A stretch of 64,000 nucleotides of DNA from a bacterium (lineage in GTDB: Bacteria > Sysuimicrobiota > Sysuimicrobiia > Sysuimicrobiales > Kaftiobacteriaceae): assembly GCA_044868695.1 (NCBI GenBank), contig JBIOWP010000084.1:11659-75658 (forward strand), written 5' to 3'. The notes beneath the pieces were generated by a model. That model did not search any database. It was not told where the DNA came from and saw only the letters and a list, made by a program, of their open reading frames with translations. Every line of letters starts with the position of its first letter. Position 1 is the first letter of the stretch. Below, piece after piece: positions 4,922 through 48,207 of this stretch. Made by a program: the position numbers and the translations under genes.

Positions 4922-5565
4922 CAGTCGGTGTCCTGCGGCAGCGAGCCCACCGTGTCCCGGAGGACACGGGCGATCACAGACGTCGAGAATCCGCGGCGTT
5001 CCAGGAGTCCCGCCAGCCGGCGGGCAGCCACCTCGCGGCTCAGGCCGCGGTATCGGCGCAGCCGGCTGCGCGCCACGTCCTGCGCGAGCGCATCCTCGTC
5101 CTGCTCACTGAGACGTTCGCGCAGCGTCCTGTCGATGACCTCCCGCGCGACGCCCTTGCGCGCGAGCTCGTACCGGAGACGGACGCGGCCCGAAGGCTGC
5201 AATGCAGTCCGGCTGCGCACCCAGGCGTCCGCGAAGCGGTGGTCATCCACCAGCCCCGCGTGTTCAAGATCGGTGATGACGGCGGCGACCACCTCAGCGG
5301 GAAGACCCCGCCGGCGCAGCCGGTCGGCCAGTTCCCGGCGGCTGCGGGGGCGGATAGCCAGCAGACGGTAGACGGTTTCTTCTGCCAGCGCCCGCTCTCC
5401 ACGCGCCCGCACCTGCGCGAGCGCGGTCTCGTCAATGTCGGCGCCGGTGGCAAGCCCGAGCGCGTTGACATCCTCCGGCCGCAGGCGAAACGTCCCGCCG
5501 GTGTCCAGCACCACGCGCCGGTGGCCGAGCCGGCCGCGGCTCGGACCGATATGGACGACGTTCAC
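4921..5565 (-). CDS. recX: recombination regulator RecX
   Basis: 214 aa. RecX-like three-repeat helical protein immediately downstream of recA. Confidence 0.85.
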   Translation of the reverse strand: MNVVHIGPSRGRLGHRRVVLDTGGTFRLRPEDVNALGLATGADIDETALAQVRARGERALAEETVYRLLAIRPRSRRELADRLRRRGLPAEVVAAVITDLEHAGLVDDHRFADAWVRSRTALQPSGRVRLRYELARKGVAREVIDRTLRERLSEQDEDALAQDVARSRLRRYRGLSREVAARRLAGLLERRGFSTSVIARVLRDTVGSLPQDTD

Positions 5566-36766: not shown

Positions 36767-38059
36767 ATGCTCATCAGGATCGAAGACGCGGCAGCGCACA
36801 CAGGGACGGAGATTGAAGTCCGGGGCTGGCTGTACCACCGGCGCAGTAGCGGAAGCATCCACTTCCTGATGATCCGCGACGGGTCTGGGCTCATGCAGGC
36901 GGTCCTGGCCAAGCAAGACGTCTCGCCCGCCGTGTTTGCCGCCGCCGCCGAAGCGACCCAGGAATCGGCTATCGTCGTGAAGGGAGTGGTGCGGGCAGAC
37001 CAGAGGGCGCCCGGAGGATTTGAGCTGACGGTCCGGGACCTGCGCGTCGTCCAGCAGGCGGCCCCCTACCCCATCACCCCAAAAGAGCACGGCGTCGAGT
37101 TCCTCATGGACCACCGCCACCTCTGGCTGCGCTCCCGGCACCAGCACGCGCTGATGCGCGTCCGGGCCGAGGTAATCCGGGCCGCCACGGAGTTTTTGGA
37201 TACTGCCGGGTATCTTCGCGTGGATGCCCCTATCCTCACGCCGGCGTCCGTGGAGGGCACCACGACGCTGTTCGAGACGCCCTATTTCGACCTGGGCAAA
37301 GCCTATCTGACGCAGTCGGGGCAGCTGTACAACGAAGCGGCCGCGATGGCATTCGGCCGGGTGTACTGCTTCGGCCCGACGTTTCGCGCGGAGAAGTCCA
37401 AGACCCGGCGTCACCTCACGGAGTTCTGGATGCTTGAGCCCGAGGCCGCGTACATGACCCTCGACGAGTACATGGATCTGGCCGAGGCCCTCGTCTGCGC
37501 CATCGTGGGGCAGGTGCTGGAGCGCCGCCTGACGGAGCTCCAGGTCCTGGAGCGCGACGTCGCCAAACTCCAGGCCGTACGCCCGCCGTTCCCGCGCCTG
37601 TCATACGATGAGGCGCTGGCGAAACTCCGGGCCGCGGGCACACCGCTTCCGTGGGGGGACGATCTCGGCGGCGACGAGGAAACGGTGATCTCGTCTGCGT
37701 TCGACCGTCCGGTCTTCATCCACCATTATCCGGCGCAGTGCAAGGCATTCTACATGCAGCCGGACGACGATCGCGCCGAGGTCGTGCTCTCGGCGGATCT
37801 GCTGGCCAGCGAAGGGTACGGGGAGATCGTCGGCGGAGGCCAGCGCATCCACGACCCGGGGCTGCTGCAGCGCCGGCTGCGGGAGCACGGGCTGCCGGAG
37901 GAAGTCTACCGGTGGTACTCGGACCTGCGGCAGTACGGATCGGTTCCGCACTGCGGGTTCGGGATCGGCATCGAGCGCACGGTGGCCTGGATCGCGGGCA
38001 TCGAGCACGTGCGCGAGGCGATTCCGTTTCCGAGGCTCTTGAACCGCCTCTATCCGTAG
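36767..38059 (+). CDS. asnS: asparagine--tRNA ligase
   Basis: Conserved start [13 protein letters not shown] at 36767 (430 aa). Class IIb motifs: [35 protein letters not shown]. The track ORF is over-extended to 36518. Confidence 0.9.
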
Positions 38060-38076
38060 CGGCAGGAGGACAGCCT

Positions 38077-39345
38077 ATGGGTCTCCGTGGTGGACGGTGG
38101 ATGCGAGCGGCGCTCGGCCTCGCCGTCCTGCTCGCGTTGCCGGCGTCGGGCGCCGGGCCGGTGACGGTGACGTTCTGGCACGGCATGAGCGGTGTGCTCC
38201 AGCCGGCCCTCGCCGAGCTCACCGCGGACTTCAACACGCTGAATCCCGGGATCGCCGTGACCGCGCAGTATCAGGGGAACTATCCCACCTTGAACCAGAA
38301 GGTGATTGCCGCGGTGGCCGCCGGCAATCCCCCGACCATCACCCAGCTCTTCCCCAACTGGACGGAGGTGCTGATCCGCGCGAATGCGCTGGTCCCTGTG
38401 GCCAATTTCATTCAGGGAGCCGACGGGCTCTCGGCCGAGAGCCTGAATGACATTCTCCCGATCCTCCGGCAGGAGAACACCTTCGGCGGCGTCCTGTGGA
38501 CCCTGCCGTTCAACAAGAGCGTCTACCTCCTCTTCTACAATGCCGACCTGCTGAAAGAACACCAGCAGAAGGTGCCGCAGACGTGGGACGATCTGGCGAG
38601 CGTCGCCAAGGCGCTGACCAAAGAGGACGGCGGGCGGACGGTGCGGTACGGGTTCGTGGTCCGGCCGACCGTCGAGTACTTCACGACCTTTCTGCTGACC
38701 AACGGCGGCGAGTTCTTCCAGCCCGGCGGGAAGGCGTTTGCGTTCAACAGCCCAGCCGGCGTGGAAGCGCTCCAGTACCTGGTCGACCTGATCGCCCTCC
38801 ACAAGGCCGCGTACGTCCTGCCAGGATTCCCAGATGGAGATTTCGGCGCGGGGAAGACGGCGATGTACATTGCCACCAACCCCGGGCTCGCGTTTGCCAA
38901 AGCCGCGGTCGCCGGCAAGTTCACGATCGGCCTCGCCCCGCTGCCGTACAAACGGGTCCGGTCGACGCTGCTCACCGGGACGAACGTCGGAATCATGGCG
39001 CGGGCCACCCCGGAGCAGCAGGCCGCGGCGTGGAAATACCTCAAGTTCATCACCGGGACCACCGGGACCACCCGGTGGTCACTGCGGACGTTCTACATGC
39101 CGGTCCGCCGGTCGGCCCGCGACTCCACGCTGATGCAGGTCTACCTCCGCGACAATCCCGAGCATCAGGCGGGCCTGGACTCACTGGCGTTCGCCCGTAC
39201 GGATCCCAGCATTGCTGAATGGGAAGAGGTGCGGGACATCGTTGCCGGCGCAGTGGAGGAAGCGGTGCTGGGCAAGAAGACGCCGCGCCAGGCGCTGGAT
39301 GAGGCGACCGCGAAGGCCAACCGCCTGCTGGCGCAGCGCAAGTAG
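38077..39345 (+). CDS. ABC transporter extracellular solute-binding protein, family 1 (carbohydrate type)
   Basis: ATG at 38077 preceded by GGCAGGAGGA. Signal peptide MGLRGGRWMRAALGLAVLLALPASGAGP. Confidence 0.85.
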   Translation: MGLRGGRWMRAALGLAVLLALPASGAGPVTVTFWHGMSGVLQPALAELTADFNTLNPGIAVTAQYQGNYPTLNQKVIAAVAAGNPPTITQLFPNWTEVLIRANALVPVANFIQGADGLSAESLNDILPILRQENTFGGVLWTLPFNKSVYLLFYNADLLKEHQQKVPQTWDDLASVAKALTKEDGGRTVRYGFVVRPTVEYFTTFLLTNGGEFFQPGGKAFAFNSPAGVEALQYLVDLIALHKAAYVLPGFPDGDFGAGKTAMYIATNPGLAFAKAAVAGKFTIGLAPLPYKRVRSTLLTGTNVGIMARATPEQQAAAWKYLKFITGTTGTTRWSLRTFYMPVRRSARDSTLMQVYLRDNPEHQAGLDSLAFARTDPSIAEWEEVRDIVAGAVEEAVLGKKTPRQALDEATAKANRLLAQRK

Positions 39346-40241
39346 TGCGGCCGCGCCGGGTGCGCCGGGCGCGTGAGCATCTGGAAGCCTACGGCTTCCT
39401 GCTGCCGGCCGCGCTCGTGCTGGCCGTCTTCCATCTCCTGCCGATCGCCTACGCATTCTACGTCAGCCTGCTGCGGTGGAACCTTCTCGATCCCGACCGG
39501 CCGTTTGTTGGACTGGACAACTACCGCCAGCTCGCGTCAGACGCCAGGTTTCTCACCGCGCTGTGGAATACGGCGTACTTTGCGGTCGTGTCGGTGGGCG
39601 TGGCCATCCCGCTGGCGTTGGGATGCGCCCTGCTGCTGAACCGCCGGCTGGCGGGGATGTCCGTGTACCGCACGGCGTTCTTTATCCCGTACGTGACGCC
39701 GCTGGCGGCCGCGGCCATGGCGTGGAAGTGGCTCTACCATCCGGACTCCTTCGGCCTGCTCAACACGCTGCTCGGGGCGATCGGGCTCCCTGCGCAGCCG
39801 TGGCTGCTGGATCCGGGGCAGGCAATGCCGGCGGTGATCGCGGTGGCAATCTGGGCCGGGATGGGCCGGGACGTCGTCATCTTCCTCGCTGGGCTGCAGC
39901 ACATTGCGCCCGAATACTACGAGGCGGCGGCGCTGGACGGGGCCGGGACCTGGCAGCGGCTGCGCCACATCACCCTGCCGCTGCTCTCGCCGACGACCTA
40001 TTTCATCCTGCTCATCAGCATGATTGGGGCGTTCAAAGTGTTCGCGCTGCCGCTGTTTCTCACCGACGGGGGGCCGCTGGACCGCACGTTCACCATCGTC
40101 TTCTCCATCTATAGGCAGGGGTTTACGTATTTCCGGATGGGCTACGCCTCGGCGCAGGCGTACGCCCTGTTCGCGATTATCTTCATCCTGACGATGCTGC
40201 AGCGGCGTGTGCTCGCCGGCCGCGTGCACTACGACAGCTGA
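39345..40241 (+). CDS. carbohydrate ABC transporter permease (MalF/UgpA-like)
   Basis: 298 aa. Six TM segments with the EAA loop region. Confidence 0.85.
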   Translation: MRPRRVRRAREHLEAYGFLLPAALVLAVFHLLPIAYAFYVSLLRWNLLDPDRPFVGLDNYRQLASDARFLTALWNTAYFAVVSVGVAIPLALGCALLLNRRLAGMSVYRTAFFIPYVTPLAAAAMAWKWLYHPDSFGLLNTLLGAIGLPAQPWLLDPGQAMPAVIAVAIWAGMGRDVVIFLAGLQHIAPEYYEAAALDGAGTWQRLRHITLPLLSPTTYFILLISMIGAFKVFALPLFLTDGGPLDRTFTIVFSIYRQGFTYFRMGYASAQAYALFAIIFILTMLQRRVLAGRVHYDS

Positions 40242-41053
40242 TGGCGGCCCGGGTGCTCGTGCATGCCGTCCTGCTGGCCGGCGCCGCGGCGATGCTCCTG
40301 CCCTATTACCTGATGGTCGCAACGTCGCTCAAGCCGCTGGGGGAGGTGTTTACCGACCCGTTCACGTGGATCCCGTCCGCCATGGCATGGGAGAACTACG
40401 TTGACGCCTGGACCCACGCGCCGTTTGCCAGGTACTTCTTCAACAGCGCGGTCATCGCGACCGCGGAAACGCTCGGCGTGCTGGTGACCTCGGCGCTCGC
40501 AGCCTACGCCTTTTCCAGGATGCGGTTTGCCGGGCGGGAGCTGCTGTTTGTGCTCTTCTTGGGGACGTTGATGGTGCCGGGGGAGGTGCAGCTGGTGCCC
40601 AATTACATCACGATTACACGCCTGGGGTGGCTCAACACCTATGCCGCGCTGATCGTCCCCTGGCTGGCCAGCGTCTTCGGGATTTTCTTCCTCCGGCAGT
40701 CCTTTGCCACGATCCCCCAAGAGCTCCAGGACGCCGCCACCGTCGACGGCGCGTCGCACCTGACGTTCTTATGGCGTGTGGTGGCGCCGCTCAGCACGCC
40801 GGCGTTCATTACGGTGGCGCTGCTCACCTTTTTGGGATCGTGGAACGCCCTGACCTGGCCGCTGATCGTCACGAATACGCCGGAGATGCGCCCGATCATG
40901 GTCGGCCTCCTGTCGTTCTCCACGGAGTGGGGCACGCAGCCCAGGCTGCTGATGGCGGCCGCGACGTTTTCGACCGCGCCGGTCCTGCTGCTGTTTTTTG
41001 TGCTGCAGCGCTACTTCGTCGAGGGGATTGCCAGGTCGGGGCTCACGCGCTAG
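40241..41053 (+). CDS. carbohydrate ABC transporter permease (MalG/UgpE-like)
   Basis: 270 aa. Start overlaps the previous stop (ATGA). No ATPase gene in the operon, so it probably shares an MsmX-like ATPase. Confidence 0.85.
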   Translation: MAARVLVHAVLLAGAAAMLLPYYLMVATSLKPLGEVFTDPFTWIPSAMAWENYVDAWTHAPFARYFFNSAVIATAETLGVLVTSALAAYAFSRMRFAGRELLFVLFLGTLMVPGEVQLVPNYITITRLGWLNTYAALIVPWLASVFGIFFLRQSFATIPQELQDAATVDGASHLTFLWRVVAPLSTPAFITVALLTFLGSWNALTWPLIVTNTPEMRPIMVGLLSFSTEWGTQPRLLMAAATFSTAPVLLLFFVLQRYFVEGIARSGLTR

Positions 41054-41057
41054 CTGA

Positions 41058-41146
41058 GGGGGAACGCGGGAACGGGGGAACGCGGAAACACGATACGGTC
41101 CGACGTTAGCGCCGCGTTTCCTCGCTTCCACGTTTCCGTGTTTCCG
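41058..41146. repeat. tandem-hexamer inverted-repeat hairpin element (GGGAAC/GGAAAC units) between the convergent sugar permease and bcp
   Basis: Left arm gggggaacgcgggaacgggggaacgcggaaacacg, 20-nt loop, right arm cgcgtttcctcgcttccacgtttccgtgtttccg. The right arm encodes the Bcp C-terminal tail TETRKRGSEETRR. Confidence 0.55.
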
Positions 41147-41606
41147 TTAGTTGTTTCAGCGCCTCCAGCACTGCGGCGCTGTGGCCGCTGACCTGCACCT
41201 TCGGGAACACTTTCACGATCGTCCCGTGCTCGTCGATGATGAACGTCGTCCGCGCGACGCCCCAGTACGTCTTGCCCATCATGGATTTCTCCGCCCAGAC
41301 CCCGTACCGGTTCGCGACGGCATGATCCGTGTCGGCCAGCAATGGGTGAGGAATCCGCAGCTTCTCCTTCCACCTGGCGTGGGACTCCACCGTGTCGGTG
41401 CTCACGCCCAGGATCTCCGCGTGCAGGGTCGTATAGGCCGCGTAGTCGTCACGGAACGCGGTGGCCTCGATGGTTCAGCCGGCCGTGTCATCCCGGACGT
41501 AGAACCACAGCACGACCCTCCTGCCGCGAAAATCCGAGAGTGCCACCCGCCGGCCGTGATCGTCCGTCAGCGTGAACTGCGGAGCCGTTTCGCCTTCTGC
41601 AACCAC
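41106..41606 (-). CDS. Bcp/PrxQ-type peroxiredoxin with in-frame TGA (41475..41477) at the peroxidatic-Cys codon; candidate selenoprotein (PrxU-like), alternatively a nonsense pseudogene
   Basis: Two track ORFs (41475..41723 and 41106..41405) are in the same frame, separated only by the TGA. Joined product: [58 protein letters not shown]...GVSTDTVESHARW...YGVW..MGKTYWGVARTTFIIDEHGTIV. It aligns to E. coli Bcp FYPKAMTPGCTVQACGLRD with the TGA at the Cp position. GTG start at 41606 is preceded by AGGAGGAG. A GC-rich hairpin begins about 10 nt 3' of the UGA. Confidence 0.6.
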
Positions 41607-41674
41607 TGGAGTCTCCTCCTGCGCGCCACGTGCGCGCACGAAGACATTAGACCCGGTCCGGCGAACTCCCTGTC

Positions 41675-42352
41675 GTGATGCGGCCGGACGAAGTCGCGCT
41701 GATCTTTGATCTCGACAACACACTGCTCATGTCCAACATCGACTTCCTGGCGGTGCGCCACCGCCTGATCGATCTCCTCGAGCATGCGGGGGCGGCCGGG
41801 CCGCCCCGCGACGCGCTGGTGCCCCTCGCACTGCCGGAGCTGGTGGCCCTGGGCGCCGCCGCCAGCGCGTCCCTGGCCGACGCGATGTGGGAGGTCATCC
41901 GGCAGGCGGAGCTTGCCGGCCTGGCCGGCGCGACGCTGGACGCGGCGGCCCCCGTCGTGCTTGAGGCGTTCCGCGCCCGCGGGTTCCAGCTCGCGATGCT
42001 GACCAACAACGCCAGCGAGATGCTGGCGGAGGTGCTTGCCACCTTCGGCCTGGCCCAGTACTTTCGTGTGATGGCCGCCCGCGACACCGTGCCGGCGCTC
42101 AAGCCCGCGCCCGACGGGATCCGCCACGTGCTGGCGCAGCTGGCGGGCATCCGCCGCGCCTACATGATCGGCGACGCCTGGATTGACGCGGGCGCCGCAC
42201 ACGCCGCCGGCGTGAGATTCATCGGCGTCGGTCCCAGGCGGGATACCGTGGAAGCGCGGGGGATTCCAATCTGGGCGTGGGCGGACGATCTGTCGGCGCT
42301 GCTGACGCTGGACCTTGTGGGGAAGGCGCGCGACAGGGAGTCGGAGAGTTGA
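41675..42352 (+). CDS. HAD-superfamily hydrolase (phosphoglycolate-phosphatase-like)
   Basis: 225 aa. Motif I IFDLDNTL, motif III K, motif IV GDAWIDAGAA. Confidence 0.8.
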   Translation: MMRPDEVALIFDLDNTLLMSNIDFLAVRHRLIDLLEHAGAAGPPRDALVPLALPELVALGAAASASLADAMWEVIRQAELAGLAGATLDAAAPVVLEAFRARGFQLAMLTNNASEMLAEVLATFGLAQYFRVMAARDTVPALKPAPDGIRHVLAQLAGIRRAYMIGDAWIDAGAAHAAGVRFIGVGPRRDTVEARGIPIWAWADDLSALLTLDLVGKARDRESES

Positions 42353-42421
42353 AGAGTTGGAAAGTTGAAGAGTCAACCAAAAATTCTCGACTGACGTTCC
42401 AACTCTCCAACTTTTCAACTG
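42344..42421. repeat. tandem-heptamer inverted-repeat hairpin element (GAGTTGA units), AT-rich
   Basis: Left arm gagagttgaagagttggaaagttgaagagtc, 21-nt loop, right arm gttccaactctccaacttttcaactg. Lies between the convergent HAD hydrolase and the Cys-rich small gene. Confidence 0.55.
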
Positions 42422-42430
42422 CAGTTCGCG

Positions 42431-42829
42431 TTACCAGAGATGCTTGAACTTGGCCGCAAACCGCCGCTCCATCTCCTCTTGATGGAGCGCGTACACCGGG
42501 CATTCCCGGAGGCGGCAGATATGCAGCGCGGTATTGCAGTACGCCTCGGACAGCTCCCAGCACTTCTTGTTGACGAAGTACGCGGCGCACACCCCCTTCT
42601 TCGGGTGCAGCACCAGCTCGTCCAGCCCCCGGACCGGCTCGGGGACCGCCGGGGAAGCGTCACGCACCAGCCGCAGGATGGGCCGGTCGGCCGGCGCCGG
42701 CTCCCGCGAGGCGGGAGGCTTCGGCGGGACGGCGGGAGCGGGTGCCGACGTGAACGCCGCGAGCTCGGCCGAGGTGTCCTGGATGAACGCCCTAATGCCG
42801 CGCCGCAGTTCCTCGCGTTCTTTCCTCAT
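42431..42829 (-). CDS. hypothetical Cys-rich protein (C-terminal CX8CX7CX6CX4C cluster)
   Basis: 132 aa. The last gene of the ParA-like cluster; its 5' end overlaps the ParA stop. No family recognised. Confidence 0.45.
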   Translation of the reverse strand: MRKEREELRRGIRAFIQDTSAELAAFTSAPAPAVPPKPPASREPAPADRPILRLVRDASPAVPEPVRGLDELVLHPKKGVCAAYFVNKKCWELSEAYCNTALHICRLRECPVYALHQEEMERRFAAKFKHLW

Positions 42830-43619
42830 GGAGCTTCATGACCTCCTTGGCCAGTTCCATGTACTCCTGCGCGCCGCGCGACGACGAGTCGTGGACCAGC
42901 AGCGGCACGCCCACCATCGATGACTCCACCAGCTTGATGTTGAAGTGGATGCTGGTGGAGAAGACCTTATCCCCAAAGAAATCCTTGATGCCCTGCACAA
43001 TCTCCTTGCTGATATTGGTCCGGGAGTCGTACATCGTCGGCAGGACGCCCAGGATCTCGACCTGATGGCCAACCTCTTCACGCACCATCTTCAGTGTCCG
43101 CAGCAGCTGCCGCATCCCCAGCAGCGCGTAGTAGTGGGTCTGGATCGGGATGATGACGTCGTCGCTGGCGACCAGCGCGTTGAGGGTCAATAGCCCCAGG
43201 CTCGGCGGGGTATCTATAAAGATGTATGCGTACTCCGAGAGGACCGGTCCCATCCGCTTGCGCAGCGAGTTCTCCCGGCCGATCCGCGCCGCCAGTTCCA
43301 GCTCCGCGGCCGCCAGGTCGATGGACGACGGGGCCAGGAACAGATTGCTGACCGTGGTCGGGACAATGATCTGCGAGAGCGAGACGGACGCATCGTCCTG
43401 GTCTTCGCTCACCATCAGGTGGTACACCGTTCTGGTCAATCCCCCGGGATCGACGCCGAGGCTGACCGTCGCGTTGGCCTGGGGATCCAGATCGATCAGC
43501 AGGATCTTCCGGCCGCTGACGGCAAGACAGGCTGCAAGGTTGACCGCCGTCGTCGTCTTCGCGCAGCCACCCTTCTGGTTGACGAGCGCGATCACTCGGG
43601 CGGGTTGCGAGTGCGCCAC
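42792..43619 (-). CDS. ParA/MinD-family P-loop ATPase with atypical Walker A KGGCAKTT
   Basis: 275 aa. NQKGGCAKTT deviant Walker A (A in place of the second Gly), DLDPQAN, DTPP Walker B. No parB in the window. Confidence 0.8.
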   Translation of the reverse strand: MAHSQPARVIALVNQKGGCAKTTTAVNLAACLAVSGRKILLIDLDPQANATVSLGVDPGGLTRTVYHLMVSEDQDDASVSLSQIIVPTTVSNLFLAPSSIDLAAAELELAARIGRENSLRKRMGPVLSEYAYIFIDTPPSLGLLTLNALVASDDVIIPIQTHYYALLGMRQLLRTLKMVREEVGHQVEILGVLPTMYDSRTNISKEIVQGIKDFFGDKVFSTSIHFNIKLVESSMVGVPLLVHDSSSRGAQEYMELAKEVMKLHEERTRGTAARH

Positions 43620-43649
43620 ACGATCCTCCCGCGTACCGTGGTGCGGGGG

Positions 43650-44042
43650 TCAGCGATCCAGGAGCCAGGCCAGGCGCCGGTCGACGGCGTCCAGGACCGC
43701 GGCAACCGCGGCGTCCTCCAGCGGTCCGCCCCGGCCGAGCGCGCTCCCGACCAGGTGCTCCTGTCCCCGCGGCGTATCCACGACGACGTGCGTCACCACC
43801 GCGGGTCCGGCCCCTACGAGCTCACTGCTCGCTCGCTGGAGCACGAACGTTGTGTCCGGCGGCGCCACCTGGCGGACGGCTTGGACCGCGGCTTCCGCCG
43901 CGACCTGCACCCCGCCCGACTCTCCGGCCGGACGCTCGACCCGTGCGGTGAGCACGGTATCGTCGTGCAGCAAATTCACAGTGACCGCCACGCGTCCCGG
44001 CGTCCGTTCGACGCGAACCCCTGCCACCCGCAGCCGCGCCAT
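43650..44042 (-). CDS. hypothetical protein with an internal duplication of a ~60-aa domain
   Basis: Conserved-looking start MARLRVAGVRVERTPGRVAVTV. Two similar halves, each ending in an AAEAAVQAV / AAVAAVLDAV helix. First gene of the ParA-like cluster. Confidence 0.45.
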   Translation of the reverse strand: MARLRVAGVRVERTPGRVAVTVNLLHDDTVLTARVERPAGESGGVQVAAEAAVQAVRQVAPPDTTFVLQRASSELVGAGPAVVTHVVVDTPRGQEHLVGSALGRGGPLEDAAVAAVLDAVDRRLAWLLDR

Positions 44043-44201
44043 TCTCCCCCGCCCGCACAGAGTCAGCGGCACGTACCTGCGGGGGGCGGCAAGGCAGCGT
44101 GTCGTGCGCTATCCGCAAGCCTGTTCGACTCAGTTGAGAGGTTTTCCTCTATGAGACCAGAACTGCTACAAGTACCGCGTTCCAGGCGAGGTGGTTGACT
44201 G

Positions 44202-45335
44202 ATGCGGGTTACCGTGAGTGTGATCAAGGCGGACATCGGCGCTGTCGGCGGTCACACCGTTCCCAGCGCTGAAGTCCTCGGCGTGGTGCGCGACCGCGTC
44301 GCCCGCGAGCGCGGCCGGCTCCTCATCGACGCGTTCGTGTACCATACTGGCGATGACATCGCCATCCTCATGACCCACACGAAAGGCAGCGATCACCCAG
44401 CCGTCCATCAGCTGGCCTGGGACGCGTTCCGTGAAGCGACGGAGGTCGCCAAACGCCAGGGCCTGTACGGCGCGGGCCAGGACCTGTTGAAAGACGCGTT
44501 CTCGGGCAACGTCAAGGGATTGGGACCCGGCTCCGCTGAGATCGAGACTGAGGAGCGGCCCAACGAAGCGTTGATGATTCTCACCGCGGACAAGACGGAA
44601 CCCGGCGCGTTCAACCTGCCGCTGTATCTCGTCTTCGCCGATCCGATGTACTCGTCGGGGCTGCTGCTGTCGGAGTCCCTGCATGCCGGGTTTACTTTCC
44701 GCATCATGGACGTAGACTACACGGAAGGCGACCGGGTGATCACGCTGGAGGCTCCGGAGCGCCTCTACGACATCGCCGCGCTGCTGCGCGACACGCACCG
44801 GTATGTCGTGGAATCCATCTGGTCCCGGAAATACCCGAAGGAGCAGGCGGCTGCGGTCAGCACGTCCCGGCTGCGCAACATCGCGGGCAAGTACGTCGGC
44901 AAGGATGACCCGTGCGCGGTCGTACGGGTGCAGAAGATTTTCCCGGCGACGGAGGAATTCGGCCCCGCCTTTGCCCTGGGACAGTACGTGGCCGGCGATA
45001 CCCGCGGCAGCCACAACCTGCCGCTCATGCCGGTGCCGATGAACACCGCGGCATCGACGTTCTTCTGTTGCCCGATGGTCTGCGGCCTGGGATTCTCGAT
45101 GCACGAGGGGCGCCTCACCGAGCCCTCGGATCTGTTCGCCGATCCCTTCTGGAACGGGGTCCGAGACCACATCGCCCAGAAGGCGGTGGAAATGCGCAAG
45201 CAGGGTTTCTTTGGCCCGGCGATGCTGCCGATGTCGGAACTGGAATACGGCGGCATTGTGGCCCGCCTGCGCAGTCTGGAGCAGGAGTTCGTGATCAAGA
45301 AGGAAGCTGCCGGCGCGCCGGCGGGGTCGGACTAG
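44202..45335 (+). CDS. fbp: bifunctional fructose-1,6-bisphosphate aldolase/phosphatase (class V FBPase, archaeal type)
   Basis: 377 aa. N-terminus MRVTVSVIKADIGAVGGHTV is characteristic of FBP aldolase/phosphatase. Confidence 0.85.
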   Translation: MRVTVSVIKADIGAVGGHTVPSAEVLGVVRDRVARERGRLLIDAFVYHTGDDIAILMTHTKGSDHPAVHQLAWDAFREATEVAKRQGLYGAGQDLLKDAFSGNVKGLGPGSAEIETEERPNEALMILTADKTEPGAFNLPLYLVFADPMYSSGLLLSESLHAGFTFRIMDVDYTEGDRVITLEAPERLYDIAALLRDTHRYVVESIWSRKYPKEQAAAVSTSRLRNIAGKYVGKDDPCAVVRVQKIFPATEEFGPAFALGQYVAGDTRGSHNLPLMPVPMNTAASTFFCCPMVCGLGFSMHEGRLTEPSDLFADPFWNGVRDHIAQKAVEMRKQGFFGPAMLPMSELEYGGIVARLRSLEQEFVIKKEAAGAPAGSD

Positions 45336-45338
45336 CGA

Positions 45339-45360
45339 GAGTTGGAGAGTTGGAAAGGCC
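45339..45360. repeat. half-copy of the GAGTTGG repeat element (no inverted partner)
   Basis: gagagttggagagttggaaagg directly after the fbp stop. Related to the 42344..42421 element. Confidence 0.4.
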
Positions 45361-45361
45361 G

Positions 45362-45516
45362 TTAGTGGTTTTTCTCCCCGTCAGAACCCTTCTCTTCCTT
45401 CAGCACCGCGGTATCGAGGTAGCGGACCAGCGACGGTAGGTACTTCGGGATCAACGCGCCGACGACCACAAAAACCGCCAGGAGTCCAAGGAAGAGATAG
45501 ACGATGGCGAGTTCAT
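45362..45516 (-). CDS. small hypothetical membrane protein (51 aa), downstream of cca
   Basis: Minus-strand ORF MNELAIVYLFLGLLAVFVVVGALIPKYLPSLVRYLDTAVLKEEKGSDGEKNH with one TM helix and a GGGGTGA RBS-like upstream. Too short for the ORF track. May be spurious. Confidence 0.3.
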
Positions 45517-45526
45517 TCACGCCGTA

Positions 45527-46879
45527 TCACCCCGACGTTGACTTCCGCACCTGCCGGTTCGTTCCTTCCGCGGGAAACGCCGTGCGGATGAGAGCTACGG
45601 CCTCATCGCGCGTCCGGATCCGTCCCTCGAGCATGGCGTCCTCGATCGTCTCCAGGATGATCTTGAATTGAGGGCCGGGGCGGTACCCCAGGTCAATCAA
45701 GTCATCGCCGTTGATCAGGGGGCGTGGAGGCGGCGGCTCGATGGCTAGGCCCTGTAGCGCGTCCACCGCCCATTGATGCACGCTCAGGTCTCCATGGCTG
45801 GCCAGGCAGTCCGCGCGGTGCAGCTCCAGATGGTCGGCGGCGTCCGGTTGCAGCAGAAACCGCTTCGCCTTAGCGGGCCGCATCTTCGGCAGGTCTTTCA
45901 CCCGCAGATGGTTGGCGACCAGGTCGACGATCCGGTCGGTCTCCTCCCCCGAGAGGTGGAGGCGGCGGCAGACCGCTCCTGCCATCTCCGCCCCAACGGC
46001 GTCGTGTTCGTTGAAGCGGATCCGGTCCGTCCGTGACAACGTCGGGGGCTTGCCGATGTCGTGCAGCAAGGCGGCCATCGCGAGCGCCGGCGACGGGTCG
46101 CGCAGGTGTTCGACCGTCATGACGGTATGCGTGAAGACGTCGCCCTCGGGGTGAAATTCCGGCGGTTGCGGCACCCCGGCGGTCGCGGCGACTTCCGGGA
46201 GGATGATCCGGAGCAGGCCGGAGGCGTGGAGCGCCCTGAGGCCCCTCCCCCTTCCTGGGCAGGTCAGGAGGCGCAGGAGTTCGTCGCGGACGCGCTCTGC
46301 GCTGACCGCCGCGATGGCCGGGGCGTTTGCGGAGACGGCGCGGAGGGCCTCGGGATCGATCTCGAAGTCGAGCTCCGCCGCCAACCGGACCGCCCGCAGC
46401 ATCCGCAGCCGGTCTTCTGCAAATCGTTCGGTGGCCGTCCCAATGGTCCGGACGATCCGGGCGCGAATATCCGCTCTCCCGCCGACATAGTCGATCGTCT
46501 CACCCCGCACGGGATCGTGCAGCAGCCCGTTGATCGTAAAATCGCGTCGGGTGACGTCGGTCCGCGCGTCGACAAACTCCACCCGGCTGGGATGCCTGCC
46601 GTCCAGGTAGGGGCCTTCCGCCCGGAAGGTAGAGACATCGTAGCGATGCGAGTTGATCGTCACGACTACGACACCGAACTGGGCGCCGACTAGGATGGTC
46701 TGTTCAAACAGCGCGGCGACGTCGGACGGTCTGGCCTCGGTGGCGATATCGTAATCGTGCGGCTCCCGGCCCATCTCGAGGTCCCGGACGCATCCGCCTA
46801 CCCAGTACGCGGCAAACCCGGCGCCGCGCAGCCGGCGCACCACCTCCAGCGCGCCGTCGCGCAGGCTGAGCGCGCTCAC
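45527..46879 (-). CDS. cca: CCA tRNA nucleotidyltransferase with HD domain
   Basis: GTG at 46879 overlaps the ctpA stop (GTGA). PolyA-polymerase head domain (GGCVRD, DYD), HD domain HDIGK. The track ORF is over-extended to 47068. Confidence 0.85.
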   Translation of the reverse strand: MSALSLRDGALEVVRRLRGAGFAAYWVGGCVRDLEMGREPHDYDIATEARPSDVAALFEQTILVGAQFGVVVVTINSHRYDVSTFRAEGPYLDGRHPSRVEFVDARTDVTRRDFTINGLLHDPVRGETIDYVGGRADIRARIVRTIGTATERFAEDRLRMLRAVRLAAELDFEIDPEALRAVSANAPAIAAVSAERVRDELLRLLTCPGRGRGLRALHASGLLRIILPEVAATAGVPQPPEFHPEGDVFTHTVMTVEHLRDPSPALAMAALLHDIGKPPTLSRTDRIRFNEHDAVGAEMAGAVCRRLHLSGEETDRIVDLVANHLRVKDLPKMRPAKAKRFLLQPDAADHLELHRADCLASHGDLSVHQWAVDALQGLAIEPPPPRPLINGDDLIDLGYRPGPQFKIILETIEDAMLEGRIRTRDEAVALIRTAFPAEGTNRQVRKSTSG

Positions 46880-48207
46880 GGCCTGGTGCCGGTCCCGGCC
46901 GCCATGCGGGCCCTCAGCGCCGTGGTGGCTTCCAGCGCCTGCACGTCCGCCGCTCCCTGGATCTGCTCGTCGTCCATCGTGACGGGGACCTCCGGCTGCA
47001 GGCCCTGCCCGTCGATGGCCCGCCCGCGGCGTGTGAAGTAGCGGGCCGTGGTCAGCCGCAGTCCCCATCCTCCCCGCAGCGGGTAGATGGTCTGGACGGT
47101 GGCTTTGCCAAACGTGCGCCGTCCCACCAGCGGCGCGCCGGTATCCTGGAGGGCGCCGGCGACGATCTCCGAGGCGCTGGCCGTAAAGATGTTGGTGATC
47201 ACCACCACCGGCCCCGAGAAACGTCGCGCCTGCGGGATGATGGGGAGCGGGTTCAACGCTCCCCGCCGCTCTTCCATGGCGACGATGCCATCGGGCAGGA
47301 ACAGGCTGGCAATCGCGATCGCTTCGTCAAGGAGTCCCCCGCCGTTGTCCCGCAGGTCCAGCAACAGCGCCGCGGCCCCGGCGTCCGTCAGGCCGCCGAG
47401 CGCGCGGCGCACGTCGGTCGATGCCCCTTCGGAGAACTCCAGGAGCCGCAGGTACCCAATGCGCGGGTCCACCATTTTTGCGCGGACCGGGGTCTCGCGC
47501 GCCGCTTCGCGCGTCAGGGACAGGCGGACGACACCGCCGGCTGCCCTGCGGACGACGATCACCACTAGGCTGCCCGTGTCCCCGCGCAGGCGGTCCATCA
47601 CGTGATCGGGGGTGCTGCCCGTGGTGGGCCGGCCGTCGACTTCAACGATGACGTCCCCGGCCCGCAGACCTGCGCGGGCGGCAGGCCCCCTCGCCGTCAC
47701 GTCGGCAAGAATAATCTCGCCTCGCACCGCGTCGACCTGCGCGCCGATGCCGGTGTGTTCCCCGCGCAGTTCGCGATGATACCGGGTGAACTCGATCGGT
47801 GGAAACACCGCTCCCTGGAGGTCGCTTCCGGTGCGCACCATGCCCCGCAGCACGGATGCCATGATGCGGTCGGTATCGCGGGGTGCGGCGGCGAGCACCG
47901 CCTGGACGTAGGCGACCACGACGGCGAGGTCCCGGGCCTCCTGCCCGGTCACGACCGGCAGGGGCGGCGGATCTGCGACGCCCGAGGAGATCACGGCGAG
48001 ATGCGCGGACAGGACTGTCTGATGAAGGAGGGTTAGCAGGTCGGGTGGACGCAGCGCGTCGTCCCGGATGGCCTCGTAGATTTCCCTGATCAGTCCTTCG
48101 GCCAGATCGGGGGGAACATCCGCAGCCAGCGGACTCGGCCACCCTGCCGCGATCAGGACCGCGACCAGCAGGGCGACACGGCGGGACCGGCGATGTCCCG
48201 TTACCAC
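46876..48207 (-). CDS. ctpA: S41-family carboxyl-terminal processing protease with PDZ domain
   Basis: 443 aa. N-terminal TM/signal segment, PDZ domain, S41 catalytic region (GGG..GTASASEI). Confidence 0.85.
   Translation of the reverse strand: MVTGHRRSRRVALLVAVLIAAGWPSPLAADVPPDLAEGLIREIYEAIRDDALRPPDLLTLLHQTVLSAHLAVISSGVADPPPLPVVTGQEARDLAVVVAYVQAVLAAAPRDTDRIMASVLRGMVRTGSDLQGAVFPPIEFTRYHRELRGEHTGIGAQVDAVRGEIILADVTARGPAARAGLRAGDVIVEVDGRPTTGSTPDHVMDRLRGDTGSLVVIVVRRAAGGVVRLSLTREAARETPVRAKMVDPRIGYLRLLEFSEGASTDVRRALGGLTDAGAAALLLDLRDNGGGLLDEAIAIASLFLPDGIVAMEERRGALNPLPIIPQARRFSGPVVVITNIFTASASEIVAGALQDTGAPLVGRRTFGKATVQTIYPLRGGWGLRLTTARYFTRRGRAIDGQGLQPEVPVTMDDEQIQGAADVQALEATTALRARMAAGTGTRP

Follow-up and report, generated by a model that had tools for sequence, protein, structure and literature searches.

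The window, a 64-kb stretch of DNA, carries a ParA/Soj-type ATPase gene and, overlapping its 3' end, a small gene termed here geneC, whose sequence suggests that it probably encodes a ParA partner of a new kind. On balance, we favour the view that both genes constitute a ParA-partner module which Candidatus Sysuimicrobiota (CSP1-3) has inherited vertically, and in which geneC would act as the adaptor of a nucleoid-based positioning system. ATPases of the ParA/MinD family position chromosomes, plasmids, carboxysomes, chemoreceptor arrays and flagella, and specificity is provided by the partner protein. To our knowledge, only a handful of such partner classes are known. The relevant features are, in window coordinates:

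43650..44042, minus strand: geneA, a 130-aa accessory protein with two predicted βββα units and a LeuA/citramalate-synthase regulatory-domain-like fold
42792..43619, minus strand: ParA, a ParA/Soj-type deviant-Walker-A ATPase of 275 aa with a GTG start after GGGAGG
43551..43574, minus strand: Walker A motif KGGCAKTT of ParA (residues 16-23) with the signature lysine K16, Cys19, and Ala20 for the usual glycine
42792..42829, minus strand: overlap of 38 nt between the 3' end of ParA and the 5' end of geneC
42431..42829 (stop codon included), minus strand: geneC, a 132-aa putative ParA partner/adaptor
42782..42817, minus strand: invariant basic motif near the N-terminus of geneC (residues 5-16, REELRRGIRAFI), a candidate peptide for binding ParA and stimulating its ATPase
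42662..42685, minus strand: short conserved motif RPILRLVR of geneC (residues 49-56), located within the disordered linker
42434..42604, minus strand: geneC residues 76-132, a 57-aa Cys-rich domain (C81, C90, C98, C105, C110; terminal W132), putatively serving metal binding and cargo or DNA attachment
42338..42420, no strand: an imperfect long hairpin of 8-nt repeats (GAGTTGRA / TCCAACTY), flanked by the geneC and HAD hydrolase genes, which converge on it

An earlier note had described a three-gene cluster in which both small proteins overlap ParA. The three co-directional reading frames are present, and public gene callers deliver identical products of 130, 275 and 132 aa, but the overlap holds for geneC only; the stop codon of geneA ends at 43650 and the GTG codon of ParA lies at 43619, separated by a 30-nt gap containing the GGGAGG ribosome-binding site. 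Likewise, conservation is restricted to ParA and geneC, with geneA found next to the pair in merely 20 loci. Relatives of geneC are present in 67 species-representative genomes, among which every taxonomically informative name belongs to Sysuimicrobiota/CSP1-3. When the count is confined to the 65 loci with sufficient upstream sequence, a ParA gene immediately precedes geneC in all of them, and the named genera with the pair represent no fewer than four families within the phylum. The overlap of ca. 38 nt is kept in most related loci (ParA frame end at 5038, geneC start at 5001), which suggests that the two genes are probably translationally coupled. Selective constraint, as read from the orthologous sequences, is stronger on ParA (66-90% identity) than on geneC (42-88%). 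Across the relatives the pair is embedded in a conserved order, hisS-aspS-HU-rarA-mnmA-cca / FBPase / ParA-geneC / HAD ... rimP-nusA-infB, and this housekeeping environment argues for vertical inheritance rather than for a mobile element or a defence island. According to the earlier note, its proposal would have been refuted if both small proteins had been placed in well-characterised families unrelated to ParA function and the cluster were conserved in no related genome; the ParA-geneC pair is conserved, and no such placement resulted. No cargo candidate was found among its conserved neighbours, a PADLOC scan of geneA and geneC gave no usable match, and promoter and terminator scans detected nothing.

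The assignment of ParA is based on matches to the Pfam families AAA_31 (1e-58, cut-off 27 bits) and CbiA (7e-23), and its closest solved relatives are ParA/Soj proteins of the chromosomal type (8ray_B, 6.5e-62; Thermus Soj 1wcv, 1e-51). Besides this overall profile match, the protein possesses the signature lysine and the Walker A' and Walker B aspartates of the ParA/MinD family: in the Walker A' motif IDLDPQ, D43 and D45 are invariant in the aligned ParA sequences, and the Walker B motif reads IFIDTPP in the window protein. The family is further characterized by the signature motifs THYYALLGMRQL and HFNIKLVESSM.GVP. In an alignment of 63 sequences (62 orthologs and the window protein) the Walker A residues K16, G17, G18, C19, K21 and T22 are invariant, and position 20 is occupied by glycine in 45 (KGGCGKTT) and by alanine in 18, i.e. 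the window protein and 17 orthologs. The atypical KGGCAKTT pointed out in the earlier note is present but is a subclade-level substitution and not the hallmark of the family; it also has a precedent in the structures 4pfs, 5ihp and 5if9, which carry KGGVAKTT with an alanine at the equivalent position. As a defining feature it was rejected owing to the interspersed Ala and Gly forms (L013-L015 carry Gly, their neighbours Ala), and a tie to geneA was rejected since geneA co-occurs with both forms. An alanine at the last P-loop glycine, as in the window protein, could lower the nucleotide affinity. The basic patch used by Soj for non-specific DNA binding was mapped after PMC6393308; the positions of B. 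subtilis Soj R189, K201, R215 and R218 correspond to R200 (100% R), K212 (variable H/K/R/Y), F226 (95% F) and K229 (97% K). The equivalents of R189 and R218, whose importance in B. subtilis was demonstrated by mutagenesis, are therefore basic, but the patch is incomplete; the phenylalanine and the variable residue suggest that DNA binding by ParA may be weaker or different.

The geneC family comprises 159 homologs, every one annotated as hypothetical, and a search of 1.84 billion cluster representatives yielded only 66 matches with E <= 0.001 and 56 with E <= 1e-10. Neither Pfam nor NCBIfam gave a match above threshold. The AF2 model of geneC consists of a helix (residues 2-27), a disordered segment (28-73) and a helical domain (79-132), and the linker varies from 0 to 271 aa across family members, fragments included. 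Such a layout, in which a disordered linker joins a conserved N-terminal helix to a small C-terminal domain, conforms to the general pattern of ParA/MinD partners, which commonly contact the ATPase via their N-terminal region (PMC11407121; PMC7333895); literature searches found no description of a ParA with a cysteine-rich partner. Within the N-terminal motif (pLDDT 84-88 for residues 5-16), 65 sequences share R5, E6, L8, R10, G11 and R13 without exception, and the stretch L8-x-R10-G11-I-x-A-F-I aligns with L8-G-R10-G11-L-E-A-L-L of Thermus Spo0J (1vz0_A). The N-terminus of H. pylori ParB reads 1-MAKNKVLGRG-10, and its Arg9 contacts ParA (PMC11229316). The tail pattern has no other occurrence in 1.29 million six-frame codons; the similarity to ParB is that of a short motif only, the full ParB-like pattern being found in just 21 of the ca. 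66 geneC N-termini, with a variable alanine. In the linker, the motif RPILRLVR (P50, L52 and L54 invariant, V55 and R56 at least 90% conserved) is found in 108 of the 157 family members and is missing from the long-linker subfamily. The proposal of the earlier note that the ATPase is paired with unrelated small adaptor proteins is consequently sustained for geneC by the invariable adjacency in at least four families, the overlap and the L-x-R-G motif, but not for geneA.

A further-reaching interpretation, to which we attach a rather low probability, regards geneC as a functional replacement of ParB and the pair as the system by which the phylum segregates its chromosome; centromere-like DNA or the nucleoid would be bound by the basic Cys-rich domain and by the Arg-rich linkers found in the long forms, instead of by the CTPase and HTH domains of ParB. 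ParA is indeed as close to the chromosomal Soj/ParA proteins of other phyla as these are to one another, and geneC occupies the position that parB has in a parAB operon, shares an overlap with parA and encodes at its start an LxRG tail of the ParB type. The C-terminal domain carries a net charge of +3 to +7 and the linkers of several long-linker members are strongly basic, up to +16, but neither a DNA-binding fold nor any PDB fold match was recognized for this domain. As stated in the earlier note, a parB partner is lacking in the 64-kb window, where neither the ParB motif GERRxRA in a plausible context nor a second KGGxxK[ST], and hence a second ParA, was detected; at the same time, the window displays no GC-skew turn, the conserved neighbours include neither dnaA nor rsmG, and no origin is identifiable nearby. 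A canonical parS was not found, the best candidate being one match with 3 mismatches, which is at chance level, and no conserved repeat array adjoins the operon. The hairpin behind geneC (dG -42.4 kcal/mol, z -5.0) was considered as a centromere and rejected, as it is species-specific, being missing at this position in all species other than that of the window, and its 8-mers are dispersed, recurring on the 3' side of the FBPase gene both in the window and in a related genome, L007. It probably serves as a terminator or represents a dispersed repeat element. The supplementary data of two published CSP1-3 genomics papers contained nothing on parA/parB.

The C-terminal domain of geneC shows the spacing C81-x8-C90-x7-C98-x6-C105-x4-C110, already recognized in the earlier note, with all five cysteines invariant in 65 homologs, and W132 is the final residue in 154 of the 157 members. 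Profile comparison with hhalign relates the domain to the CWE modules of P0253, P0256, P0257 and P0258 with 98.1% probability; at the level of sequence profiles, it is homologous to CWE-type Cys-rich modules. The last five cysteines of the two-CW domain (NF045718) and of the CWE-type modules are spaced as in geneC (C-x8-CWE-x5-C-x6-C-x4-CPVY). Of the seven-Cys module, the first CW and the second cysteine are missing in geneC, which retains a single CW (C90-W91). It gives no match to NCBIfam NF045718 and does not have the two CW of this profile, for which its remote CWE relatives score 12.8-14.7 bits at a cut-off of 35, and no description of a 'two-CW domain' was found in the literature. Given the invariant cysteines, which are the sole ground for postulating metal binding, the domain probably harbours a Zn or Fe-S centre.

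Unlike geneC, its CWE relatives are not linked to ParA; in other bacteria their modules reside in a cheW-cheW-mcp-cheA-cheB operon, beside an OmpR-type response regulator, and in a histidine kinase/response regulator/MshE ATPase set. Such a vicinity to signalling genes suggests a sensory role and leads to another scenario, in our opinion improbable, in which the pair regulates division or replication initiation in space or time in the style of MipZ, PomZ or Soj-DnaA, with geneC as a switch that senses redox state or metal and adjusts ParA activity via the Cys domain. Redox sensing would be useful for Sysuimicrobiota, which are described as facultatively anaerobic (PMC11604079). However, the sensory role amounts to guilt by association from three contexts, the pair shows no linkage to genes of division or replication, and it is more typically cargo adaptors that carry an activating, ParB-like tail on a long, disordered tether.

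It might also be argued that the neighbourhood of the two genes has no functional meaning, geneC being a small metalloprotein in its own right and ParA an orphan ATPase of the Soj type that works with an unlinked partner. The lack of a recognized family for geneC and the putative nature of its interaction with ParA fit this assumption, but we consider it very unlikely in view of the adjacency in 65 of 65 loci across the phylum with overlapping reading frames, the invariant ParB-like N-terminal motif, and the near-complete confinement of geneC to the ParA context, as reflected in the few matches among the 1.84 billion representatives. An Mrp/NBP35/ApbC-like Fe-S carrier with the Cys-rich protein as Fe-S client or scaffold, as might be prompted by weak Pfam/NCBIfam matches to NUBPL/ParA (PF10609), NifH and Mrp and by the Cys-rich neighbour, is most unlikely because these matches stay far below AAA_31 and under the NCBIfam cut-offs (MrpORP 25.7 vs 450 bits, ApbC 23.3 vs 348), those to Mrp and ApbC covering only the P-loop region, because ParA contains no CxxC and thus not the C-terminal CxxC of Mrp/NBP35 carriers, and because its closest solved relatives are Soj/ParA proteins.

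The structure predicted for geneA (pLDDT 92.5) is composed of two successive βββα units, and its fold is assigned with high confidence, on the basis of the model, to the type of the LeuA/citramalate-synthase regulatory domain. The allosteric (dimerisation) domain of these synthases (PF08502; 3fig, 3f6g) contains two βββα units as well; in contrast, geneA is a stand-alone protein of 130 aa without the catalytic TIM barrel and shares only 13-17% identity. The internal duplication of ca. 60 aa claimed in the earlier note is therefore visible in the structure, but BLASTP produced no alignment between the halves and their profile-profile comparison a weak, in-register signal (E 0.015). Against Pfam, the window protein gave nothing at E <= 1, its remote relatives match PF08502 weakly (12.4-19.1 bits, below the 24.9 cut-off), and NCBIfam provided no match above threshold. 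Both small proteins are thus, as the earlier note had it, uncharacterised; profile searches placed neither in a well-characterised family. Distant relatives of geneA do not adjoin ParA; one from Roseiflexaceae is adjacent to a DUF5317 gene and has no ParA in its vicinity. Accordingly, geneA is a lineage-restricted accessory gene not required for the ParA-geneC module. It is probably a dimeric small-molecule binder, and it may modulate the module.

For the favoured ParA-adaptor module we propose the following scenario. ATP-bound ParA would dimerise and coat the nucleoid through the partly retained Soj basic patch. The basic N-terminal helix of geneC, with its invariant ParB-tail-like L-x-R-G, would bind to the ParA dimer and stimulate ATP hydrolysis, while the disordered linker of variable length might function as a tether and the five-Cys domain, probably in its Zn- or Fe-S-loaded form, might attach the adaptor to its cargo, either a protein assembly or DNA. 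Where geneC is bound to its cargo, ParA would be locally depleted, and this depletion would drive positioning or segregation of the cargo in the manner of the usual diffusion ratchet. We only tentatively entertain the more specific idea, itself doubtful, that a metallo (Zn/Fe-S) Cys-rich adaptor which has kept nothing but the activating tail of ParB replaces or supplements ParB in Sysuimicrobiota. If true, a domain that senses metal or redox state would be linked to ParA-driven chromosome segregation or component positioning, and a partition or positioning system would employ a previously undescribed type of centromere- or cargo-binding module. A phylum-wide protein combining a ParB-like tail, a variable tether and a five-Cys domain would add an adaptor class, possibly together with a new cargo; it would represent a natural example of a ParB tail grafted onto an unrelated module and offer the first functional context for the CWE Cys-rich domain, found elsewhere beside signalling genes. 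The impact is limited by the uncultured state of Sysuimicrobiota.

Among the known systems, the chromosomal ParABS machineries (Soj/Spo0J; Thermus thermophilus 1wcv/1vz0, Helicobacter pylori HpSoj-HpSpo0J) share with the pair a small deviant-Walker-A ParA (PDB matches of 1e-51 to 6e-62) which retains the two basic residues experimentally important for DNA binding, and a directly downstream, overlapping partner gene whose product starts with L-x-R-G-hydrophobic. In contrast, geneC contains neither the ParB/Srx CTPase domain nor HTH or GERRxRA, but a disordered linker and the five-Cys domain instead; no parS was found, the locus is not at a recognisable origin, and neither a ParB- or RHH-type partner nor a centromere was detected; and ParA carries THYYALLG and HFNIKLVESS in place of the canonical (A/C)EYYALEG and PRNVRLSEAP. 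Among the orphan ParA-like ATPases with non-ParB partners, which include actinobacterial PldP, the mycobacterial ParA-like protein of 4pfs has the Walker A alanine (KGGVAKTT) and an LPT(M/L)YDSRT motif in common with the window ParA. However, the E-value against 4pfs (7e-50) is no better than that against Soj, which argues against a specific orthology, and orphan ParA systems differ in partner and context, with no chemoreceptor, xerD or scpAB neighbours found for the present pair. McdA-McdB, which positions carboxysomes, likewise combines a ParA-type ATPase with a small fast-evolving adaptor, and the terminal tryptophan of geneC recalls the invariant C-terminal Trp of McdB-type proteins, although this is a resemblance only. 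Sequence homology is not detectable, geneC possesses a folded Cys-rich domain which is absent from McdB, and ParA retains the signature lysine; moreover, no carboxysome, BMC or RuBisCO genes lie within ±10 kb of any locus examined, and the pair occurs in autotrophic and non-autotrophic families of Sysuimicrobiota. In PpfA-TlpT, finally, a nucleoid-type ParA cooperates with a partner whose N-terminus plays the role of ParB (PMC7333895), an arrangement resembling that envisaged for ParA and geneC.

Three genes, all pointing in the same direction, occupy positions 42431-44042 on the minus strand of the window:

43650-44042, minus strand: geneA, encoding a duplicated-domain protein of 130 aa when counted from the ATG; a longer GTG-started ORF extends to 44072
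42792-43619, minus strand: the Soj-like ATPase (ParA), 275 aa, with a GTG start and GGGAGG just before it
42431-42829, minus strand: geneC, encoding a five-cysteine small protein of 132 aa

The identical three products are called by public gene callers on near-identical MAG contigs. The earlier note had both small genes overlap that of the ATPase, which is correct for geneC, sharing 38 nt of reading frame with ParA, but not for geneA, which is separated from ParA by a 30-nt gap.

In all 65 related loci with enough upstream sequence, geneC is preceded by a ParA ortholog (66-90% identity) whose reading frame stops at the geneC start or just within it. The overlap amounts to 38 nt in most related loci too, and the wider gene order around the pair is kept in distant families. 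Adjacency, conserved overlap and maintained gene order together argue that the pair is an ancient unit of the chromosome, passed on by vertical inheritance. PADLOC linked the pair to no defence system. The surrounding genes are of the housekeeping type, with hisS, aspS, HU, rarA, mnmA, cca and then a divergently oriented class V FBPase gene upstream, and a convergent HAD hydrolase gene, a sugar ABC transporter, a second Asp/Asn-tRNA synthetase-type gene and rimP-nusA-ylxR-infB downstream. The G+C content is 64-70% across the whole window, and no GC-skew turn occurs within its 64 kb.

Further features were noted in the neighbourhood. Two class II Asp/Asn-tRNA synthetase-type genes (PF00152 plus anticodon-binding OB fold) lie on either side of the ParA region (about 38000-47000), one beside hisS and the other beside the HAD hydrolase gene, in all phylum genomes examined (the window and the related loci L001, L074, L075 and L077); this arrangement would fit a pair of AspRS or AsnRS enzymes, one discriminating and one non-discriminating. 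A Bcp/AhpC-TSA peroxiredoxin gene looks split on the minus strand (41106-41405 and 41475-41723): an 82-aa ORF stops at "...VVLWFYVRDDTAG", just short of the expected catalytic Cys, and the remainder is found on a separate 99-aa ORF, the only one given by gene callers, also in near-identical MAG contigs; the split may reflect a frameshift, pseudogenisation or faulty assembly. The gene for the CCA-adding enzyme is immediately followed by a hydrophobic ORF without family assignment (MNELAIVYLFLGLLAVFVVVGALIPKYL...; about 52 aa; 45362-45520, minus strand), which corresponds in place to ORFs of about 50 aa called in distant phylum genomes (L002, L075, L077). Finally, convergent intergenic regions contain hairpins of tandem 8-nt units (GAGTTGRA in one arm, TCCAACTY in the other; dG -42 kcal/mol, z -5), which resemble a terminator or REP-like element that is dispersed and specific to the lineage:

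42338-42420 of the window: hairpin downstream of geneC in the window species
45339-45354 of the window: hairpin remnant 3' of the FBPase gene
2193-2297 of L007, a locus of a related species: full copy at the FBPase site

The ATPase belongs to a known family, of which it is an ordinary representative. It matches Pfam AAA_31 (1e-58), and its nearest solved relatives are chromosomal-type ParA/Soj proteins (8ray_B, 6.5e-62; Thermus Soj 1wcv, 1e-51; H. pylori Soj 6iub, 3e-49). Its Walker A motif indeed reads KGGCAKTT, as noted earlier, but the supposed peculiarity is a clade variant. In an alignment of 63 sequences (orthologs from 62 related loci and the window protein), K16, G17, G18, C19, K21 and T22 are invariant and position 20 is Gly in 45 and Ala in 18, the window protein included; apart from the Ala, a substitution at subclade level, the motif is thus a canonical deviant Walker A. 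The same exchange (KGGVAKTT, aligned with residues 16-23) is present in PDB 4pfs/5ihp/5if9, a ParA-like ATPase of solved structure filed under the name "cobyrinic acid a,c-diamide synthase", so that the variant recurs independently among ParA-like proteins. The signature motifs THYYALLGMRQL and HFNIKLVESSM.GVP are peculiar to the family, where canonical Soj has (A/C)EYYALEG and PRNVRLSEAPS.GKP. The DNA-binding patch of Soj (Thermus R182/R194/R208/R211, equivalent to B. subtilis R189/K201/R215/R218; PMC6393308, HpSoj-DNA complexes) was transferred via the alignment with solved relatives to R200 (invariant), K212 (variable: H, K, R or Y), F226 (Phe in 95%) and K229 (Lys in 97% of the 63 sequences). 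Both positions shown to be important by mutagenesis in B. subtilis are basic here, which makes nucleoid binding plausible, if not assured.

GeneC, the putative partner, is novel, with a family restricted in essence to a single uncultured phylum. It has no match in Pfam or NCBIfam; a word-indexed search retrieved 159 homologs, every one annotated as hypothetical. When 1.84 billion cluster representatives were searched exhaustively with an HMM, only 66 proteins came in at E<=0.001. Scanning one genome per species revealed relatives in 67 genomes, named ones being Candidatus Sysuimicrobium, Tepidifontimicrobium, Fervidifonticultor, Calidihabitans, Geohabitans and Thermofontivivens, besides CSP1-3 and ANGP1; Candidatus Sysuimicrobiota has five families, of which four are represented by the genera that were looked up (Fervidifonticultor, Calidihabitans, Tepidifontimicrobium, Thermofontivivens). 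The protein begins with the segment M-x-K-E-R-E-E-L-R-R-G-x-R-x-F-I-Q-D, in which R5, E6, L8, R10, G11 and R13 are invariant in the alignments, followed by a Pro/Ala-rich linker with the short conserved motif RPILRLVR and a C-terminal domain with five invariant cysteines (C81, C90, C98, C105, C110) and invariant W91, Y84, Y113, P111, R108 and terminal W132. Among 157 members with the full Cys motif, the linker as measured spans 0-271 aa, a range that takes in partial sequences; the C-terminal domain has a constant length of 57 aa and mostly a net charge of +3 to +7, and Trp is the final residue in 154.

The N-terminus is similar to the tail by which chromosomal ParB activates ParA. Thermus Spo0J (1vz0_A) starts with MSRKPSGLGRGLEALLP and H. 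pylori ParB with MAKNKVLGRG, whose Arg9 is the key ParA contact in the crystal structure (PMC11229316); window geneC reads E-E-L8-R-R10-G11-I-R-A-F-I, its invariant L8, R10 and G11 matching the L, R and G residues in ParB. Across window and loci, 1.29 million six-frame codons contain 21 instances of the pattern L.RG[LIV].A[LFIM][LIV], each at a geneC N-terminus; since its Ala is not conserved in geneC, the common core is L-x-R-G-Φ-x-x-Φ-Φ. As ParA/MinD partners generally work via their N-terminal region (PMC11407121, PMC7333895), we infer from motif, architecture and synteny that geneC is an ATPase-stimulating adaptor. The adaptor role suggested in the earlier note thereby gains support for geneC, though none for geneA.

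On balance we favour, with some reserve, a nucleoid-based ParA positioning module, in which the ParB-like tail of geneC would stimulate ParA and its Cys-rich, probably metal-binding, domain would tether a cargo. Gene position, tail and positive charge speak for a geneC acting in place of ParB on the chromosome itself; against it, no origin context, canonical parS or conserved repeats were found at the locus, and no DNA-binding fold was recognised in geneC. We regard this version as unlikely.

The weak tail of the exhaustive search led to small proteins (P0253, P0256, P0257, P0258) with the module CWE-x3-C-x7-C-x8-CWE-x5-C-x6-C-x4-CPVY, whose last-five-Cys spacing is exactly that of geneC; profile-profile comparison relates the two (98.1% probability, E 1.3e-13), and NCBIfam NF045718 ("two-CW domain") scores just under threshold. 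The remote homologs carry one or two such seven-Cys modules and adjoin signalling genes: cheW-cheW-mcp-cheA-cheB, an OmpR-type response regulator, or a PAS histidine kinase with response regulator and MshE-type ATPase (L079 5001-5246, L085 400-834, L086 4575-5411). They may constitute an uncharacterised sensory module. These contexts suggest that ParA and geneC might act as a regulatory switch, with redox state or metal sensed by the Cys domain of geneC, a reading we consider quite improbable. Mere coincidence of the ParA-geneC adjacency is very improbable, and an Fe-S carrier function of the ATPase even more so.

We take geneA for an accessory protein of part of the phylum, possibly one that binds a ligand. 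It was detected in only 20 related loci, always directly upstream of ParA, is absent in more distant families and has no match in Pfam or NCBIfam. Its AlphaFold2 model (58 sequences; pLDDT 92.5, pTM 0.88, very confident) comprises two βββα units, so the internal duplication noticed earlier is real at the fold level, but its sequence trace is nearly erased: BLASTP finds nothing between the halves, and hhalign aligns them in register at E 0.015. Remote relatives of about 220 aa (L082 5916-6569; P0183, P0186-P0195), from Roseiflexaceae among other sources, have the C-terminal AARAVLDAVNRRL helix in common with geneA, and their sequences suggest that the β-rich unit is present a third time, at the N-terminal end. 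In the one context examined, the Roseiflexaceae gene follows a DUF5317 membrane-protein gene without ParA linkage. These relatives seem to belong to a broader, as yet uncharacterised family that has the LeuA/citramalate-synthase regulatory-domain fold.

The literature collection searched yielded no description of a ParA with a Cys-rich partner or of the CWE/two-CW module, and no microcompartment genes are linked to the ParA-geneC pair. McdB offers a resemblance, and only that: McdB and geneC both show disorder, a charged N-terminus and, at the C-terminus, an invariant Trp, and in McdB this Trp mediates cargo binding (PMC11321042).
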